A stretch of 64,000 nucleotides of DNA, taken from NCBI GenBank assembly GCA_963703155.1, contig OY969796.1, positions 3,175,652 through 3,239,651 on the forward strand, given 5' to 3'. This stretch comes from an uncultured Chloroflexia bacterium. Its GTDB lineage: Bacteria; Chloroflexota; Limnocylindria; Limnocylindrales; CSP1-4. The notes beneath the pieces are model-generated. The model saw only the letters and a list, made by a program, of their open reading frames with translations, did no database searches and was not told the DNA's origin. Below are positions 16,964-27,230 of the stretch, piece after piece. The position numbers and the translations under genes were made by a program. Numbering within the stretch: the first letter of the stretch is position 1; each line of letters begins with the position of its first letter.

Positions 16964-17186
16964 ACGGATCGCGCAAGCCGCGGCCGCGCAATCTGCGGCA
17001 CGACGCGGTGCGACGGCACGACGCGGAGCGCCCTGGCGGCGCGAGGGCATGGCGCTGCGATGCGCGGCGTCGTACGATGCGCCTGACCCGAGCCAGCTCC
17101 TCGTACGGGGCTCGTCCTAGTCCGCCAGCTTGTTCCGGCGGCAGGATGCATGAGCCCGCGATGCCTGGGCGGGATGGAGGTTCCTC

Positions 17187-18287
<1,101 letters not shown>

Positions 18288-19969: not shown

Positions 19970-20398
19970 TCAGGATCGGGGCGCCCCGCCCCCGCGACCG
20001 GCGACCGCCCGCTCCAGCGCTCCTCGGTAGAGGGCCGAGTCGGGCGCCAGCGCGCACGCGAGCCGCAGGTGGGTCACGGCCTCGGGCACGCGTCCCAGCT
20101 TGCGCAGGCTCTGGGCCAGCGCGTAGTGCCCGTAGGGCGATGACGGGTCCACCTCGAGCAGGGCTTCGAAGACCTCGTGAGCGCGATCGTGCTGGCCCCC
20201 GTTGAAGCACGCACGGCCGAGCGCCTCCAGGATCGAACCCCGGCCCGGCTCCAGGCTGGCCGCGCGCTCGAGCACGATCGCCGCCTGCGCGTTGTGGCGA
20301 CCGTGCATCAGGGCTTGGCCGCGCTGGAGGAGCTCATAGGCGGATTCGGGCTCTGCGGGCTGGGGCTCGCCGTCGGGACGGGGCGATTCGTCCTGCAT
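19970..20398 (-). CDS. TPR-repeat protein
   Basis: 142 aa, tetratricopeptide-like helical repeats (AxxxxxxAL...P pattern). Confidence 0.5.
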   Translation of the reverse strand: MQDESPRPDGEPQPAEPESAYELLQRGQALMHGRHNAQAAIVLERAASLEPGRGSILEALGRACFNGGQHDRAHEVFEALLEVDPSSPYGHYALAQSLRKLGRVPEAVTHLRLACALAPDSALYRGALERAVAGRGGGAPRS

Positions 20399-20446
20399 GG
20401 GGCGATGCTCGCACGGACGGCCCGAGCCCGCAGATGGGCGCCGCGG

Positions 20447-21466
20447 TCAGTCGCGCCAGGTCGTCAGGTCGAGTGCCTTGAGTCGCGGGCTGTCCGTCAC
20501 GCCGGGGATCCGCCCGCGCTTGGCGATCGGCTGCCCGTCGATCTCCTTGATGTCGCCGGTGAAGTCGATCGGCGTCGCCCCCGAGATGTAGCTGCCCACC
20601 GCGAACGAGTCGACCGGGGCGGCCTTCTCCTTGAAGTAGAGGATCCGCTCGGGCGTCAGGCCGCCGGACACGACGATGCGGACGTGGCCGTAGCCCTCGC
20701 GGTCGAGGCGCGCCCGGACCTCGGTCACGAGGTCGGCGGTGACGCGACCGCGCTCGGACGGCGTGTCGAGGCGGACCCCGTAGAGCCGGTCGCCCAGCGC
20801 GTGGGCCACGCGGAGCGCCTCCTCGGCCTCGTCCTTGAACGTGTCCACGAGCACGATCCGGGGGACGTCGGGGGGCATGTCCCGGTCGAACGCCTCGGCG
20901 GCGCGAACGGTGTCCCCGAAGATCAGCACCAGCGAGTGGGGCATCGTCCCGGTGGGGTTGAGCTTCGCGAGGCGCGCGCCGGCTGGAGTGGACGCGCCGA
21001 CGCAGCCGCCGACGATCGCGGCGTAGTCGAGCACATCGGTGATGTCCGGGTGCACGTGGCGGGCGCCGAAGGAGATCACCGGCTGCGGGGCGGCGGCCTC
21101 GACGCACCGGCGGGCGGCGGTCGCCCATCCCGTCGACTGCGAGAGCATGCCGAGCATGGCGGTCTCGTACAGGGCGAAGGCACGGTACCGGGCGTGGATG
21201 CGGAGGACCACTTCCTTGGGCGTGACGAGGTCGCCGTCCTCCATGGCCTCGACAACCGCGCCGGGCTCATCCGCGAGCACGTGGCCGATCAGGTTGGTGG
21301 CCTCGCCCATCCCGCACAGGACGGCGTCCTCGCGGCAGAAGACCTCCATCGTCACGACCGGGTCGATCCCTTCGCGGTCGAGGATGCTGTTGGCGCGCGC
21401 GAAGTAGACATCGGCCGTCGCGCCGGAGAGGATCTCGATCGACGGTCGCGTGCGCTGGAGACCCAT
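20447..21466 (-). CDS. nicotinate phosphoribosyltransferase (type II PRTase family)
   Basis: ATG at 21466 inside longer track ORF; NAPRTase-like motifs (GTMPHS, VLVDTFKD, SGGL). Confidence 0.65.
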   Translation of the reverse strand: MGLQRTRPSIEILSGATADVYFARANSILDREGIDPVVTMEVFCREDAVLCGMGEATNLIGHVLADEPGAVVEAMEDGDLVTPKEVVLRIHARYRAFALYETAMLGMLSQSTGWATAARRCVEAAAPQPVISFGARHVHPDITDVLDYAAIVGGCVGASTPAGARLAKLNPTGTMPHSLVLIFGDTVRAAEAFDRDMPPDVPRIVLVDTFKDEAEEALRVAHALGDRLYGVRLDTPSERGRVTADLVTEVRARLDREGYGHVRIVVSGGLTPERILYFKEKAAPVDSFAVGSYISGATPIDFTGDIKEIDGQPIAKRGRIPGVTDSPRLKALDLTTWRD

Positions 21467-21503: not shown

Positions 21504-24194
21504 TCACTGCGCTCCTTCGTCCTGCCGGTCGGCTGAGGACTGGGGCGTGGGCCCGGCCGCCGCATTGGCCGGGAGTATAGGGTACGGCCCGGGTGGCGCC
21601 GAGGGTGCTGACGGCACGGTGGGCCGCCACCACGGCGGCGGCGGGGGCGGGGCGAGGCTCGGGTCGATCCAGTCGTCGACACCGGCCGTGGCCGCTGCGG
21701 GTGCCGAGACGAGACTCGGGGAGGTCGATACGGCGGCACTCGGGGGAGCCTCGGCGGGGCGAGATGCGACCGGCACGACCCCCTGACACGAGCTCTCGAC
21801 CAGACCGCCGACGGGACCGCCGACCGGCCACGCCGTGCCCGGGGAGGCCGACAGCGAGACGCCGGGTGTCGATGCTCGTCGCCTCGCGGCCGATCGTCGA
21901 CGGACGATCGTCATCCCGAGGACCATCAGCAGCGCAAGGGCGACAAGCGCGGCGCCGATCGCGACGAGTCGCAGCCTGCCCGCATCGGCGGCCACCGCGA
22001 GCGCGCCGTGGGCACTCGCCGCCTCCTCGGCGGCCGTGGAGGCGTCGCCCGATGTCCACGCGACCCGCGCCGCGATGAGGTCGCCCGAGGGGTCCTGGCC
22101 GACGAGGCCAAGCGTGACCAGCCAGTCGCGCGGCGCCTGGAGCGCGGCATCGGCGGCCGCCACGGCGTCGAGCGACCGGTGCAGCGCCTGCTCGTCCGCG
22201 GCGGCCTTCATGAGCGCCGCGGGGCTCGAGGCCGCCTGGTAGGCGCTCCGGAGTGTGGCCGGGACAACGAGATGCTCCGCCGCAGCCTCGCCACGGATCG
22301 CATCCCGCACGGCGAGCACGGCCCTCGCGTCCGCGATGGCGCTCGAGGCTCCGGCGAAGTCCCAGGCGTCGAGGTCCATCCGGATGACCGCGGGCGCTGC
22401 CCATTCCCCGCCCCTCGCGAGGAGGTCGTGGTAGGCAGCCCTCGCCGCGGCGCGCGGCGCGAGCAGCTTTCGCTCCGCGGTCGTCAGGACCCACGGCCCG
22501 ATCATCTCTGCGATCCCGCGCCCTCCGCCAACCTCTTCTGCCAAGTCCACGAAGCGTCGCCAGTCCGCGGCCCGAGTGCTCTTCTCGGGCGCGCCCGGCG
22601 CCGCGTATGCGGTGGTCCCGGCCTTCGCGGCGGCGAACACCGCCGCCATCGTGGCCTCGCCGAGCTTGGTGACGGCCTGCCGGACCACGGTCCACGAGGC
22701 GTCGTAGCCCCACTGCTCGTGGGCGTCCTGGGTCCTGGTCTTGATGGGCGCCGGCGTGCCCCAGGTGTCCAGCGGGAAGGCGGCCGATGCGTTCGCGCGG
22801 ACCTTGGGCGGCCCGTCGACTGCCACGCCGAGGCCGACCAGGGTCCGGTAGGCGTACTCGTCTGCAAGCCCCTCCGTGATCCATCGGTCCGTGAACAGCG
22901 CCGAGTTGAACCAGGCGTGCGAGGCCTCGTGGACAACCGTGAGGGGGTCGACCGCCTCGCTGATGGTGATCTGCTGGGAGCTGGGCGAGTAGAAGCCCGC
23001 GTACCCCTCGAGCAGGGCGCTCGAGACCTCGAGCACCGACAGCTGGCCGTTCACTGGCCAGGGCAGGCCGATGCGCTTCACCAGCGCCGGGATGGCGGAG
23101 GTCAGCGTGCTCGAGACGTCCTTCTCCCAGGTCGGGTCCTCGGGCCAGGCGCGGACCACCACCTGCTCGCCGTCCGGGAGCTTGAGGGAGCGGCTGGTGA
23201 GCGCGCTGTCGTCGCGGGCATCGATCCAGGCGTACCAGCTGCCGGGGTCACCCGCGCTCGCCGAAAGGACGCTGTCGCCGCCGGCTCCGGTCCCCTGCTC
23301 CATGGGGCCGCCCGAGACGTCCACCGTGTACTGCGACGGCACGTCCACCTCGACCGTCCCGCGGTCGCCGAATGCCCACGCAACGAAGGTCGTGTAGGCG
23401 GCGCCGACGCGAACCTGGCTCGAGGACCGCGGGGCGCCCGCGGGAAGCACGTACGAGACGTGGACCTGCGCCGTCTGGCCGACATACAGGCGCGTCGCGA
23501 ACTGGACGGCCAGCAGGCGGTAGCCGGTCTGCGCCTTGCTGGTGGTGCGGTCGCGGGATCCGCCTTCATCGGCGATGAACTGGCGGGCCTCGAGCTGGAC
23601 CGCGAGGTTGACGCCCGGGTAGTAGTACCGCGCGCCGGCGGTCACCGGGAGCCGGTTGACCGCGGTGATGTCAACGGCGACGCGGACCACGCGCGCTGCG
23701 GGGTCGACCACGTAGGTCGTGGCGGTGGCGACGTCCAGGCCGTCGGCTGCGGCCAGGACCGAACGCGGGGCGACGCCGCGAAGCGGGAACGGCGCCTCGA
23801 GGACCGGCTCCTGCGGGGTGGTTCGGGCGGGCGGGGCGTCGTGGGCCGGGCCGGGTGATGCTGCACTGGGTGAGAGCGCGTTGCCCGCGCCGTTGATGCC
23901 CGCGGATTGCCCGGCAACCGGGCCGGTGGGCCCGAGGTCCTCGTTCGGCGGCGATCCGGTCGTGGCGGCCGGGCTCGTCCCTGCAGCCGCGCTCGTCCCT
24001 GCTGCCTTGCTCGTGCCTGCAGCCGGGTCCTGGATCGTCCGGGCGGCTGCGGCCGGAACCGCGATCGTCCGGGCAGCTGCGGCCGAGCCGGAGCCAGGGC
24101 CCTGCGCTGCGCCCGGGACGAGCGTCGCCGCAGCGATTGCCACGGCGCCCAGCACGGCGACCAGCCGGGACCGCCACCCCCCAGCGCTGTTCAC
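21504..24194 (-). CDS. membrane-anchored putative zinc metallopeptidase (gluzincin HEXXH-X18-E), paralog 2 of tandem pair, Pro-rich C-terminal tail
   Basis: GTG start in GTGA overlap with upstream paralog; N-terminal signal/TM; HEASHAWF...EGLADEYAY zinc site; C-terminal TM then PPPPPPWW-rich tail. Confidence 0.65.
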   Translation of the reverse strand: MNSAGGWRSRLVAVLGAVAIAAATLVPGAAQGPGSGSAAAARTIAVPAAAARTIQDPAAGTSKAAGTSAAAGTSPAATTGSPPNEDLGPTGPVAGQSAGINGAGNALSPSAASPGPAHDAPPARTTPQEPVLEAPFPLRGVAPRSVLAAADGLDVATATTYVVDPAARVVRVAVDITAVNRLPVTAGARYYYPGVNLAVQLEARQFIADEGGSRDRTTSKAQTGYRLLAVQFATRLYVGQTAQVHVSYVLPAGAPRSSSQVRVGAAYTTFVAWAFGDRGTVEVDVPSQYTVDVSGGPMEQGTGAGGDSVLSASAGDPGSWYAWIDARDDSALTSRSLKLPDGEQVVVRAWPEDPTWEKDVSSTLTSAIPALVKRIGLPWPVNGQLSVLEVSSALLEGYAGFYSPSSQQITISEAVDPLTVVHEASHAWFNSALFTDRWITEGLADEYAYRTLVGLGVAVDGPPKVRANASAAFPLDTWGTPAPIKTRTQDAHEQWGYDASWTVVRQAVTKLGEATMAAVFAAAKAGTTAYAAPGAPEKSTRAADWRRFVDLAEEVGGGRGIAEMIGPWVLTTAERKLLAPRAAARAAYHDLLARGGEWAAPAVIRMDLDAWDFAGASSAIADARAVLAVRDAIRGEAAAEHLVVPATLRSAYQAASSPAALMKAAADEQALHRSLDAVAAADAALQAPRDWLVTLGLVGQDPSGDLIAARVAWTSGDASTAAEEAASAHGALAVAADAGRLRLVAIGAALVALALLMVLGMTIVRRRSAARRRASTPGVSLSASPGTAWPVGGPVGGLVESSCQGVVPVASRPAEAPPSAAVSTSPSLVSAPAAATAGVDDWIDPSLAPPPPPPWWRPTVPSAPSAPPGPYPILPANAAAGPTPQSSADRQDEGAQ

Positions 24195-26293
24195 CGGGCG
24201 GGCGCCTCGGGCCGGATCCGCGAGGATCGACGGGGACGCAGCAGCCGGCTGGCGAGCGACAGGGCCAGGACACTGAGCGCCACGACCAGCGCGACCGCCA
24301 TCAGCACGCGCCGCCGGCCCTCGCCGTGGGCGTCGCCCCACATCTGCGCGGAGGCCTGGGCAGAGGACGTCGCGGTGACCGTGTCGCCGGCCGCAAGGGC
24401 CGCCCTTGCCGCCGCCAGCTCGCGCTCCGGATCCTGGCCGATCATCCCCACATTCGCCAGCGTGTCGCCGCGGCCCTGGGCCTGCCCCTCGGCCGCCGCG
24501 CCGATCGCCGCGATGGCCGCCTCCTCATGCTGCGCCTCCCTCGCCGCGCCCGCGAGGTCGCCGGCCTCGAACAGCTGCTGCACCGCGGGCGGCAGGGCCA
24601 GACCGGCCACCGACGCCTGGGCCTCGAGCGTCGTCCGCTCCGCGAGCGCGGTCCGCGCCTGCGCAAGGAGCGACGTCGCAACATCGAACCGCCACGCCCG
24701 CAGCGCGTCCCGGATCGATCGGGGCAGCGCCCAGCCGTCCGCTGCCGCGAGCGCGCCCTGATACGCCGTCCGGGCTGCAGCCCGCTGGTCGAGCAGGCCA
24801 GCCTCGCCGGGCCGGACCACCCAGGTCCGCCACAGCGTGGTGAAGTCGAGGCCGGTCTCGGCCTCCAGCAGGTCGAGGAAGCCGCGCCAGTCGGGCGCTC
24901 CGTCCACGGTTTCGGGCGTCGGGGACTGCCCTGACGGCGGTTGATACGCGCCGGTCCGCGCTGCGGCGTCTGCCCAGACCCGCGCGAGGGCGTCTGGGCC
25001 CGCCTGGTTGAGGATCAGCGTGGCCAGCGCGTAGGACGCGGCGTAGCCATAGGATTCCGCGGCGGTGGTCGGCGCCGGGGTGGCGGGCCAGTCGTTGAGC
25101 GGGAAGGCGGCCGCCCGGAGCTTCGCTGTCAGCGCGGGTGCGGACGACTTGATCTTGAGCGCCACGAGCGCCCGCTGCGCGTAGAGGCTCGCGAACCCCT
25201 CGACCTCCCAGCGGTCCGCGAGGAGCGTGCCGTTGAACCACCCGTGGGCGGCCTCGTGGACCACCGTCGCGGAGTTCGCCCAGTACGCCACCTGGATCAT
25301 CGACGCCGTGGGGTCGTACAGCCCCGCAAAGCCGCCCGTGCTGCGGCTGACCGCCTCCTGGACCACGACTGCACCGTCATGGGGCCACGCCAGCCCGATG
25401 TCCGAGCGCAGGAGCGGCAGTGACCGCGTGAAGAGCGGGCCCACGCGCCCTGCCCAGGAGCGGTCGTCCTTCCAGGCGCGAATCGTGAGCGGGATCGTGC
25501 CGTCCTCGACCTTCACCGAGAGGTTCGTGGCTCGATACGTCGCCGGCTGCTGCGCCGAGACGAAGGCGAAGAACCCGAGTGGGTTGGCGAGGGCGTTCGT
25601 GGCGAGAACGACGCCGCCGTCCGACGCGTGGGTCTGCGTCGTGAACGTGCCGGACTCGACGCTGACGTCATAGCCCTTGGGGAACCGCACGGTCACGCGG
25701 CTGCCAGAGGCCCCGTCCGAGGCGTAGGCCCAGACCGGGAAGGTGACGAGGCTCGTGCCGACGCGGACCAGGCGCTGGACGGCGGTGCTGGTGTCCTTGA
25801 GGTCGAAGGCGAACCGAAACGACGTGGTGTGGCCACCGAACAGCTGGGCGAAGTCGAGACGGAGGGTCGTGGCGTTCGCACCCCGCGAACTGATGTGCAC
25901 CGAGGCGCCGCTCGGGCCCTTGGTGACCCTCGGGTTGGCCGCACCGGGCTGCACGTTGAGGAACGCGTGGTCGAAGTAGAAGCGGTTGACCCGCGTGTCG
26001 GCCCGGTGGTTGGCAATCGACACGTCCACCACGACGCTGACCCGCCCCTGGCTCGGCAGGACCGAGTAGATGGCGGCGGTCACGATCGTCAGGTCGGTGC
26101 TGGCGCCACGGGCCGTCGGGGCCGGCACGATGCCCGCCGGGCCGAGCAGCAGTCCGAGCAGACTGAGCACGCCGATCGCGAACGCCAGCGACGCTGCCCG
26201 CTGGCGAAGGCGGGACAGGCGCGCGGGGCGCCACTCGGCCGATCGCGGCTGGTCACGGCGCTCGGCGCCGCTCGATGCGGGCGAACCCGTCAC
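24191..26293 (-). CDS. membrane-anchored putative zinc metallopeptidase (gluzincin HEXXH-X18-E), paralog 1 of tandem pair
   Basis: GTG start in GTGA overlap with YbjN-like gene; N-terminal TM (LAFAIGVLSLLGLLLG); HEAAHGWFN...EVEGFASLY; C-terminal TM. Confidence 0.65.
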   Translation of the reverse strand: MTGSPASSGAERRDQPRSAEWRPARLSRLRQRAASLAFAIGVLSLLGLLLGPAGIVPAPTARGASTDLTIVTAAIYSVLPSQGRVSVVVDVSIANHRADTRVNRFYFDHAFLNVQPGAANPRVTKGPSGASVHISSRGANATTLRLDFAQLFGGHTTSFRFAFDLKDTSTAVQRLVRVGTSLVTFPVWAYASDGASGSRVTVRFPKGYDVSVESGTFTTQTHASDGGVVLATNALANPLGFFAFVSAQQPATYRATNLSVKVEDGTIPLTIRAWKDDRSWAGRVGPLFTRSLPLLRSDIGLAWPHDGAVVVQEAVSRSTGGFAGLYDPTASMIQVAYWANSATVVHEAAHGWFNGTLLADRWEVEGFASLYAQRALVALKIKSSAPALTAKLRAAAFPLNDWPATPAPTTAAESYGYAASYALATLILNQAGPDALARVWADAAARTGAYQPPSGQSPTPETVDGAPDWRGFLDLLEAETGLDFTTLWRTWVVRPGEAGLLDQRAAARTAYQGALAAADGWALPRSIRDALRAWRFDVATSLLAQARTALAERTTLEAQASVAGLALPPAVQQLFEAGDLAGAAREAQHEEAAIAAIGAAAEGQAQGRGDTLANVGMIGQDPERELAAARAALAAGDTVTATSSAQASAQMWGDAHGEGRRRVLMAVALVVALSVLALSLASRLLRPRRSSRIRPEAPAR

Positions 26294-26835
26294 GAGCGCT
26301 CCCCGCCGGGTTCGGCCAGCAGCTCCGCCAGCTCCGCCGAGTAGCGCGCGACGAGGCGCATTCCGGGGCCGTCCGGGTCGGCAGGGGGCGTCGTTCGCCA
26401 GCCGCCCGCCTTGAGCCACTCGACCGACTCGGCGTGGAAGCGGTCCGCGACGGCCACCTGCCGGGCGAGCGCGAGGCCGAGGTCCTCTCGTCCGACGGTG
26501 GCGGCGGGCAGCTCCGCCACCAGCAGCGGGCGCTCATCCTCGCCCACGCTGAACTTCACGAACGGCAGCTCGTCGTTCCAGCGCAGCAGCTTGCGATATG
26601 ACTTGCGGAAGTTGTCGTTGACCGGCGGCGCGAAGTGGCACCAGCAGATCAGGGCGAGACCCGGATCGAGGATCAGCGTGATCCGGAGCGCGGCGCGGCG
26701 CCGGCCGTCGAGAACGATGTCCCACGAGGTGACGCCCTCGCGGTCGCTGCGCTCGAGCGGGGTGACGCCAAGGTCGGCGAGCCAGGCCTCGACGTCGGCC
26801 GGACCGCACGCCGCCGCCCGGGGAGCGATGGACAT
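26290..26835 (-). CDS. YbjN-domain protein (putative sensory transduction regulator / chaperone-like)
   Basis: 181 aa from ATG 26835; YbjN-like fold pattern (WDIVLDGRRRAALRITLILDPGLALICWCHF...); first gene of a 3-gene translationally coupled operon. Confidence 0.5.
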   Translation of the reverse strand: MSIAPRAAACGPADVEAWLADLGVTPLERSDREGVTSWDIVLDGRRRAALRITLILDPGLALICWCHFAPPVNDNFRKSYRKLLRWNDELPFVKFSVGEDERPLLVAELPAATVGREDLGLALARQVAVADRFHAESVEWLKAGGWRTTPPADPDGPGMRLVARYSAELAELLAEPGGERS

Positions 26836-27230
26836 GGCCCGCAGTCTACCCGAGGGCGCGAAACGGCCGATCAGCGACGTTCGCGGATGTTCCTCTGGAG
26901 GCGACGGCACTCCGTGAATTCGCGACCGGCGTCGGGCTAGGTCGCCGACACGGCCTCGCCCGCCCCGGCGACGCCAGCGCGTGCACAGGCGCGTGCTGAA
27001 ACGGCAGGAGTTGTCACGCAGTCGAAGGACGACTGCTCGACCATGGTCCGGCCGCGAAGTCCCGTCAGGGAGTCCGACGACGGGTGCCTGTCAGCGGGTT
27101 CGCCGCTGAAGCGGCTCTCGAAGCCGAAGCCGACCTTTCCCGCGCCGACCACCACTCGTGCTTCGACTGCCTGTCAGAAACGGGCCGTGAGAATCGACGC
27201 GGCTGCGCGGCAGGGCCGGCGACGACCCGA

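Follow-up and report, generated by a model that had tools for sequence, protein, structure and literature searches.

A YbjN-like gene coupled to tandem genes for predicted surface metallopeptidases of M1-like fold in Limnocylindria

The ybjN–MP1–MP2 locus

A YbjN-like gene and two large genes for putative zinc metallopeptidases, here designated MP1 and MP2, follow one another on the minus strand of a 64,000-nucleotide (nt) stretch of DNA from an uncultured Chloroflexia bacterium (the window; positions 3,175,652 to 3,239,651 of contig OY969796.1, assembly GCA_963703155.1). A first-pass annotation, made from the sequence alone, had described three minus-strand genes chained by GTGA overlaps. The open reading frames (ORFs) and overlaps confirmed in the window sequence agree with it, and public gene calls give identical products of 181, 700 and 896 amino acids (aa). 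MP1 and MP2 are 34% identical over 585 aa (E=1e-67), which makes them paralogs, as had been proposed.

Because the window has a GC content of ~72%, spurious long ORFs are to be expected, and a check of GC by codon position matters. The three genes show values of 0.88–0.91 at third codon positions (GC3) and 0.52–0.61 at second positions (GC2), whereas overlapping long ORFs in the other frames have a GC3 of only 0.64–0.72. An operon-like chain of the YbjN-like gene, MP1 and MP2 is supported. The host had been taken for a member of the Actinobacteria; the closest homologs come from 'Candidatus Limnocylindrales' or Chloroflexota metagenome-assembled genomes, and the locus belongs to a member of the Chloroflexota (Ca. 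Limnocylindrales).

Table 1. Features of the locus and of related loci (positions are those of the window unless a locus or protein is named)
Feature	Position	Strand	Basis or remark
YbjN-like gene	26290-26835	-	181 aa
MP1	24191-26293	-	700 aa; predicted membrane-tethered ecto-metallopeptidase, M1-like fold in the model
MP2	21504-24194	-	896 aa; MP1 paralog, same architecture
GTGA overlap, YbjN stop / MP1 start	26290-26293	-	read in sequence
GTGA overlap, MP1 stop / MP2 start	24191-24194	-	read in sequence
MP1 signal peptide (residues 1-63), h-region 38-56	26105-26293	-	hydropathy, orthologs; predicted cleavage between ARG and A, before STDLT
MP1 strand/loop 'E313...RSTGG', opposite M1 'PDF..GAMEN'	25331-25357	-	hidden Markov model (HMM) alignment to APN 8t41
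MP1 HEAAH (H346, E347, H350), putative zinc-binding/catalytic motif	25244-25258	-	translation
MP1 E365, putative third zinc ligand, in W-x-x-EGFA	25199-25201	-	translation
MP1 C-terminal transmembrane (TM) anchor (663-681), after conserved EGRRR	24251-24307	-	hydropathy 2.79
MP2 low-complexity Ala/Gly/Ser/Thr/Pro linker (31-150)	23745-24104	-	translation; unaligned to MP1
MP2 'LLEGY' (394-398) at GAMEN position, Glu kept	23001-23015	-	HMM alignment
MP2 HEASH, putative zinc-binding/catalytic motif	22917-22931	-	translation
MP2 E441, putative third zinc ligand	22872-22874	-	translation
MP2 C-terminal TM anchor (743-761)	21912-21968	-	hydropathy 2.73
MP2 cytoplasmic Pro-rich tail, 135 aa, with PPPPPPWW and acidic C-terminus DEGAQ	21507-21911	-	translation
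PYPILP motif in MP2 tail	21570-21587	-	translation
QRPTase-family phosphoribosyltransferase, downstream	20447-21466	-	Pfam QRPTase_N + QRPTase_C; 37 nt past MP2
MP1-MP2 fusions	L012 5896-10095; L063 5344-10095; protein P0135 (1373 aa)		four hydrophobic segments
MP1 with HQxxH	L021, L030, L031, L033, L037, L041-L043, L048, L049, L062		
MP1 with RQAAH	L036, L039		
MP1 with NEAAH	L002		
MP1 with QEAAH	L006		

A peptidase family of M1-like fold

No Pfam or NCBIfam family matches MP1 or MP2 above its cutoff, and no earlier description of their family, or of a pairing between YbjN and a peptidase, was found in the literature, in keeping with the first-pass remark that the arrangement was not recognised as a described system. 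The two proteins belong to an undescribed peptidase family. When 1.84 billion cluster representatives (clusters at 50% identity) were searched with a profile, 2,202 proteins matched at E<=1e-3, of which 998 reached E<=1e-30. A second clade occurs in Acidimicrobiia (Ilumatobacteraceae, Acidimicrobiaceae), and its members are 34–36% identical to MP2 and 28–30% identical to MP1.

An AlphaFold2 model of MP1, built on 41 sequences (pLDDT 87.3), shows a beta-rich domain at residues 68–274, followed by a mixed domain that carries HEAAH on one helix (residues 341–353) and E365 on another (residues 361–378). The C-terminal part is made of long helices, the last of which is continuous from residue 638 to 684 and contains the hydrophobic segment 663–681. 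When the model was compared with the PDB using Foldseek, all 50 top matches were M1 aminopeptidases (E=1.4e-15 to 7.6e-13, probability 1.0), including IRAP, ERAP1/2, PSA, APA and a two-domain Deinococcus radiodurans M1 enzyme, with ~500 aligned columns. An extracytoplasmic metalloprotease fold, on which the first-pass annotation had leaned, is thus what the model displays, and the nearest described peptidase family is M1. The global TM-score against M1 structures is low (~0.25), and it follows that the domain orientation and C-terminal part of MP1 differ from theirs.

The profile of the MP catalytic domain matches aminopeptidase N (APN; 8t41) at E=5e-5 with HEXXH and WxxEGFA aligned, the MP segment 'HEAAHGWFN...DRWxxEGFA' lying over 'HELAHQWFGN....DLWLNEGFA'. 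The Pfam family Peptidase_M1 is weakly matched by 22 of 30 MP catalytic domains (best E=3.2e-5), and some Acidimicrobiia members carry precomputed weak matches to PF01433. MP1 stays below the PF01433 threshold (12.7 bits; cutoff 27.7), MP2 is without a match, and a single-sequence search against the PDB gave a chance match only.

Translation and the modelled helices are consistent with the zinc sites named in the first-pass annotation, HEAAH in MP1 and HEASH in MP2, each with a downstream Glu. With HEXXH and the Glu on consecutive helices of the MP1 model, MP1 and MP2 are classed as clan MA(E) gluzincins. Across a family alignment of 260 members, H346 is kept in 247, E347 in 243 and H350 in 255, and the position of E365 is Glu in 257. 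The presumed zinc ligands and general base are together preserved in ~91% of these members, and ~9% have a degenerate motif. By alignment only, candidates for the M1 catalytic Tyr are Y417 (219/260) and Y450 (251/260).

The M1 consensus is GXMEN-X22-38-HEXXH-X18-E, and HEXXHX3G[DENQ]X6WX6E is an M1-specific signature (PMC2241622). The MP family does not match this signature, and its ligand spacing is HEXXH-X14-E rather than X18, with E365 standing 14 residues past H350, because 3–4 residues are deleted between the Trp and the Glu relative to APN. The segment aligned to GAMEN reads RSTGG in MP1, where the Glu of GXMEN has become Gly, and ALLEG in MP2. In the column of that Glu (position 320), Gly is found in 127 of 189 EGF-type members and Glu in 23 of 61 EGL-type members. 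The first-pass claim that both paralogs are without GAMEN therefore holds insofar as GXMEN is conserved in neither, and needs amending for MP2, which keeps a GXMEN-like 'LLEGY' with its Glu. E313, kept in 246 of the 260 members, aligns with the acidic residue (D/E) of the M1 'PDF/PEF' motif. Its spacing of 33 residues to HEXXH, as in APN and PepN, had made E313 a candidate for the GXMEN Glu itself; the HMM alignment and the order of strand, loop and strand oppose that assignment.

The MP family is M1-like in fold and outside M1 by the defining signature. As in M1 enzymes (APN/CD13, IRAP, ERAP1/2, PepN and D. radiodurans M1, PDB 6A8Z), an N-terminal beta domain precedes a thermolysin-like catalytic domain and a helical C-terminal region, HEXXH lies on one helix and the third-ligand Glu on the next within W-x-x-EGFA, and it is M1 that gives the best structural and sequence matches. 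Mammalian M1 members are membrane-tethered ecto-enzymes, as the MPs are predicted to be; however, they are held by an N-terminal signal anchor (type II), whereas the predicted anchor of an MP is a C-terminal TM helix after a cleaved signal peptide (type I). Furthermore, the ARM/HEAT-like domain IV of M1 appears in the model to be replaced by a stalk of long helices. A Streptomyces-containing actinobacterial M1 sub-family of ~450–530 aa has lost the Gly, Met and Asn of GXMEN and kept the Glu (PMC2241622). Judged by its description only, that Glu is comparable to E313 or to the Glu of LLEGY in MP2; the sub-family is set apart from the MPs by its retained HEXXH-X18-E, its shorter length and the lack of any reported C-terminal TM anchor or tandem pair (PMC2241622).

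Membrane topology, linker and cytoplasmic tails

MP1 and MP2 each have an N-terminal hydrophobic segment after Arg residues and a C-terminal TM segment followed by a basic, poly-Arg stop-transfer stretch. Both elements are detected by Kyte–Doolittle hydropathy in 314 of 354 family proteins. The N-terminal segment had been read as a signal anchor. In orthologs and Acidimicrobiia homologs, however, a short n-region is followed by an AxA site directly before the conserved mature start (A)TDLT, and a cleavable signal peptide of the Sec type is the most likely reading of the segment. The Arg-rich n-region of 37 residues in the MP1 of the window is a peculiarity of its subclade, compared with 3–15 residues in most species, and in the MP1 model residues 1–30 and 46–64 have a pLDDT below 50. 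Signal peptides like those of the orthologs, with AxA sites, together with the C-terminal TM segment would make the MPs type I membrane proteins, their catalytic domains lying outside the cell. The first-pass annotation had likewise placed the catalytic domains, which lie between the secretion signal and the C-terminal TM segment, on the outer side. Next to the MP1 anchor, G659, R660 and R662 are invariant in the A1 set.

Hydropathy and translation also bear out the C-terminal TM segment reported for both paralogs and the Pro-rich tail of MP2. In addition, MP2 carries a low-complexity linker of 120 residues between signal peptide and beta domain, with the repeats AAAARTI (twice) and AAGTS (three times); MP1 and most MP2 orthologs (~700–760 aa) are without it.

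About 21 of 39 MP2 tails, and some tails of single-copy MPs, contain the motif [PR]YATL[PA][PA], which is followed after 15–35 residues by an acidic C-terminus, (D/E)EGAxx. In the MP2 of the window it reads GPYPILPA...DEGAQ. Of 326 family tails, 28 carry the motif, whereas shuffled tails would give 0.28 by chance; Acidimicrobiia have next to none (2 of 109 tails). Loci with the motif include L012, L016, L023, L026, L028, L030, L034, L041, L042 and L046-L049, among others. A second motif, 'RMHAHRMK / QAHRVR', is found in a number of MP1 tails. The YbjN-like protein and the TPR protein encoded downstream are candidate partners of the tail motifs. The presence of the YATL motif does not strictly track that of YbjN, and many YbjN-positive loci are without it.

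The peptidase pair and recurrent loss of MP1 catalytic residues

MP2 is present in 45 of the 80 species-level Limnocylindria loci surveyed. In the tandem loci, MP1 and MP2 overlap by 4 nt in 12 cases, and in most of the rest they lie a few to ~20 nt apart. One Limnocylindria clade has natural in-frame MP1-MP2 fusions of ~1,400 aa, seen in three independent assemblies. The fusions run from a signal peptide through ectodomain 1, a TM segment, a short basic loop, the former MP2 signal peptide and ectodomain 2 to a final TM segment, an order that would keep both ectodomains outside.

Catalytic or ligand residues of MP1 have been lost in 15 of 80 species, through HQxxH in 11, RQAAH in two, and NEAAH and QEAAH in one each, and these degenerate orthologs otherwise keep the active-site signature. 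By contrast, HExxH is retained by MP2 in 45/45 loci, and an intact MP2 adjoins MP1 in 13 of the 15 species with a degenerate MP1 (Fisher p=0.0095). A neighbour-joining tree separates the losses into at least six independent events, of which four fall in tandem and two in single-copy loci; at least four are Glu-to-Gln (E→Q) changes. In the M1 enzyme aminopeptidase B, E→Q abolishes activity (PMC2241622). Both paralogs of the window have intact sites.

The alpha and beta subunits of the M16 mitochondrial processing peptidase are a pair of active and inactive metallopeptidase paralogs. MP1 and MP2 resemble them as two paralogous subunits of which one keeps the catalytic motif while the other may lose it and yet be retained. 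They differ in that the MPs are of another clan and fold, that both paralogs of the window are intact and that an MP heteromer is hypothetical.

The YbjN-like protein

The 181-aa product of the first gene matches Pfam PF10722 over residues 14–134 (E=1.7e-12; 48.1 bits against a cutoff of 22), as expected from its first-pass assignment to the YbjN family. It is acidic (pI 5.2), has no TM segment and is cytoplasmic. The best Foldseek matches of its AlphaFold2 model (30 orthologs; pLDDT 83) are CesT, SycN/YscB, DR_1245, PA14_16140 and 2plg, with probabilities of 0.99–1.0 and TM-scores, normalised to target length, of 0.53–0.64; SycT and ExsC are also similar. The model thus assigns it the alpha/beta fold of class I chaperones of type III secretion systems (T3SSs).

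Members of the YbjN superfamily are viewed as peptide-binding chaperones akin to those of T3SSs (PMC9503650; PMC5398634; PMC3575483), and the cellular role of the superfamily is unsettled. DR1245 and T3SS chaperones bind specific partner proteins (PMC3575483), and the phenotypes of Escherichia coli YbjN (PMC3181261) and Erwinia amylovora AmyR (PMC5398634) are pleiotropic and related to exopolysaccharide. Like the YbjN family and class I T3SS chaperones (E. coli YbjN, AmyR, DR1245, CesT, SycE), the protein described here is small, acidic and cytoplasmic and has the same alpha/beta fold. Unlike T3SS chaperones, it is encoded without a T3SS, none of whose genes were seen in the neighbourhood, and its gene is translationally coupled to that of a Sec-exported peptidase. 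The literature searched links no YbjN-family member to a Sec-exported peptidase.

Conservation of the neighbourhood

The gene order in the 80 Limnocylindria loci is M23 peptidase, glgC, ybjN, MP1, (MP2), QRPTase-family enzyme and TPR protein, the PcsB/EnvC-like M23 gene lying two genes upstream of ybjN–MP1 on the same strand. YbjN is directly upstream of MP1 in 76 of the 79 loci in which it could be assessed, and a 4-nt NTGA overlap between the YbjN stop and the MP1 start is kept in 71 of these 76, despite MP1 identities as low as 43%. No sampled Limnocylindria locus has another gene between ybjN and MP1.

In Acidimicrobiia, the peptidase gene is divergent from sufB or lies just past a pair of HxlR and molybdopterin-oxidoreductase genes. 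It adjoins an S9 prolyl oligopeptidase gene in six of seven genomes, and M20 and S15 peptidases are near it in the seventh (L081). On an Acidimicrobiia-type contig (L087 800-7139), three peptidase paralogs of 715, 680 and 712 aa stand in tandem. HExxH is intact in each of them, and a 4-nt overlap joins the first two genes. This expansion and the duplication in Limnocylindria are separate events, so the peptidase gene has repeatedly and independently been duplicated in tandem.

The link between YbjN and the peptidase is strong but lineage-specific. The conservation expected from the first-pass annotation holds for YbjN in Limnocylindria and fails in the seven Acidimicrobiia loci, and the tandem pair of peptidases is found in only 45 of the 80 Limnocylindria loci. 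A universal pairing of YbjN with the MP family is ruled out by the Acidimicrobiia loci. Housekeeping genes (M23, glgC, QRPTase-family, TPR) share a long array on one strand with the three genes, and the neighbourhood alone is therefore weak functional evidence.

Proposed function and alternatives

On balance, and by a modest measure, the locus is best read as a lineage-specific Limnocylindria operon in which paired surface zinc peptidases degrade external peptides, with the YbjN-fold protein as an accessory. It is proposed that each MP is exported via a cleavable Sec signal peptide and tethered by one C-terminal TM helix with a cytoplasmic tail, and that its ectodomain comprises the N-terminal beta domain, the thermolysin-like HEXXH...E domain and a helical stalk leading into the TM helix. 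The enzymes would hydrolyse extracellular peptides at the cell surface and so feed uptake; in Acidimicrobiia, the neighbouring S9, S15 and M20 peptidases suggest a part in peptide catabolism. The two paralogs probably act side by side as a pair in which MP2 is the constant catalytic partner. MP1 would be active in this genome, and elsewhere may repeatedly have been turned into a non-catalytic (E→Q) binding partner that retains the zinc site.

The YbjN-like protein is co-translated with MP1 and would handle the peptidase on the cytoplasmic side, either by holding the precursor before export or by binding the tails. Because it is cytoplasmic and the peptidase domains are predicted to lie outside, any contact would have to be with the pre-export precursor or the cytoplasmic tails. 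Binding to the long Arg-rich N-terminal extension of MP1 was considered and rejected, since YbjN and the overlap are still kept in the majority of species, where the n-region is short. A fully dedicated system, in which a YbjN-fold chaperone recognises the precursor or the PYATLPP...DEGA-COOH tails of a heteromer of catalytic MP2 and E→Q pseudo-enzyme MP1, seems doubtful.

Several observations weigh against peptide-degrading paired peptidases with a YbjN accessory. Since GXMEN is not conserved in the MP family, exopeptidase or aminopeptidase specificity cannot be assumed, and an endo- or oligopeptidase is possible. When degenerate MP1 sites are counted as events, the association with MP2 presence (4 vs 2) is not significant. 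No cytoplasmic motif is common to all MP1 proteins. Three Limnocylindria species (L003, L006, L008) have lost ybjN and kept MP1, and in 7/7 Acidimicrobiia genome loci the peptidase has no ybjN nearby. YbjN orthologs are 71–99% identical compared with 43–82% for MP1, which is unexpected for the dedicated chaperone of a fast-evolving exoprotein. Finally, the array is tightly packed and 4-nt overlaps are common along its whole length, including glgC and the phosphoribosyltransferase gene.

The losses of ybjN, its absence from the Acidimicrobiia loci, its higher conservation and the packing of the array also favour an explanation in which YbjN has no specific link to the peptidases and acts generally, as a stress or 'protein stabiliser' factor in a same-strand housekeeping array, the overlap reflecting operon compaction. 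Synteny extends over the whole array in 80 species, overlaps also occur at the MP1/MP2 and MP/phosphoribosyltransferase junctions, the glgC–ybjN gap has a median of only 84 nt, and the E. coli YbjN (PMC3181261) and AmyR (PMC5398634) phenotypes would suit a general factor. Against it stand the persistence of the NTGA overlap through the divergence of MP1 and the absence of any intervening gene. As an account of the locus this explanation is unlikely, if a serious contender; on the narrower question of whether YbjN interacts specifically with the peptidases or is merely syntenic with them, the balance is roughly even. The first-pass annotation had suggested a module that processes or quality-controls surface proteins, with the YbjN-like protein as a putative chaperone or regulator in the cytoplasm; on this reading the proteins would be the cell's own, and YbjN would pass on or sense the substrates. 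The peptide-binding chaperone fold of YbjN (PMC9503650), the outward-facing peptidases and their tight, conserved coupling would fit; nevertheless, nothing specific points there, and this role is improbable: the neighbourhood conserves no gene for a candidate substrate, the Acidimicrobiia members have no ybjN nearby and sit beside peptide-catabolic enzymes, and a cytoplasmic chaperone cannot reach the substrates of an ecto-enzyme.

Alternatively, the MPs might mainly be transmembrane binding or signalling receptors, whose ectodomain captures a peptide and whose tail motifs relay to YbjN or the TPR protein. Recurrent natural E→Q 'substrate-trap' forms of MP1 with kept zinc ligands, tail motifs (PYATLPP...DEGA-COOH, RMHAHRMK) enriched 100-fold over shuffled tails and a conserved downstream TPR gene speak for such a function. 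It is nonetheless very unlikely in view of the full catalytic site in ~91% of the family and in every MP2, of tail motifs that occur in a minority of proteins and are all but missing from Acidimicrobiia, and of MP1 tails that are often just 6–20 basic residues. The MPs could also be imagined to trim cell-wall peptides (peptidoglycan stem peptides) together with the upstream coiled-coil M23 peptidase. In favour are the conservation of the M23 gene on the same strand and a stalk that, on the model, holds the enzymes at the membrane's outer face. We regard this as the most remote of the functions considered here: glgC separates the M23 gene from the three-gene unit, Acidimicrobiia homologs have no M23 neighbour, and no M1-fold enzyme is known to act on peptidoglycan.

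Both Limnocylindria and Acidimicrobiia abound in soil and fresh water, and most of their members are uncultured. A widespread, unannotated and apparently cell-tethered M1-like family (~2,200 clusters at 50% identity) would be a candidate for part of the ecto-peptidase activity of their communities, and would fill 'hypothetical protein' gaps in their genomes. The recurrent E→Q changes of MP1 and the MP1-MP2 fusions offer a clean case of pseudo-enzyme evolution beside an active partner. Similarly, the near-invariant coupling of ybjN to the gene of an exported enzyme provides a concrete, testable hypothesis for a family of unsettled function. Were the dedicated-chaperone reading true, it would supply the first defined YbjN client outside type III secretion and a new architecture of bacterial ecto-peptidase.

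Flanking features

The QRPTase-family gene is probably co-transcribed with MP2, and in several single-copy loci (L045, L056, L058, L068, L069, L072, L074, L075) its start abuts or overlaps the MP1 stop. A small TPR gene lies 48 nt past it in the window (the two genes span 19970-21466, minus strand). Given these short gaps and overlaps, the transcription unit may extend past the three genes.

Upstream, the glgC–ybjN spacer (26836-27230) measures 395 nt, whereas its median length is 84 nt among the 70-odd related loci that were measured, and contains no known RNA or riboswitch by Rfam match at E<=1. A consensus scan for promoters and terminators that might mark the operon limits found none, and such a scan is uninformative in a genome of 73% GC. 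The sole Rfam match in the window is a malK-III RNA motif (RF03009) at 17089-17189 on the plus strand, which scores 78.9 bits (gathering score 50; E=2.9e-16).

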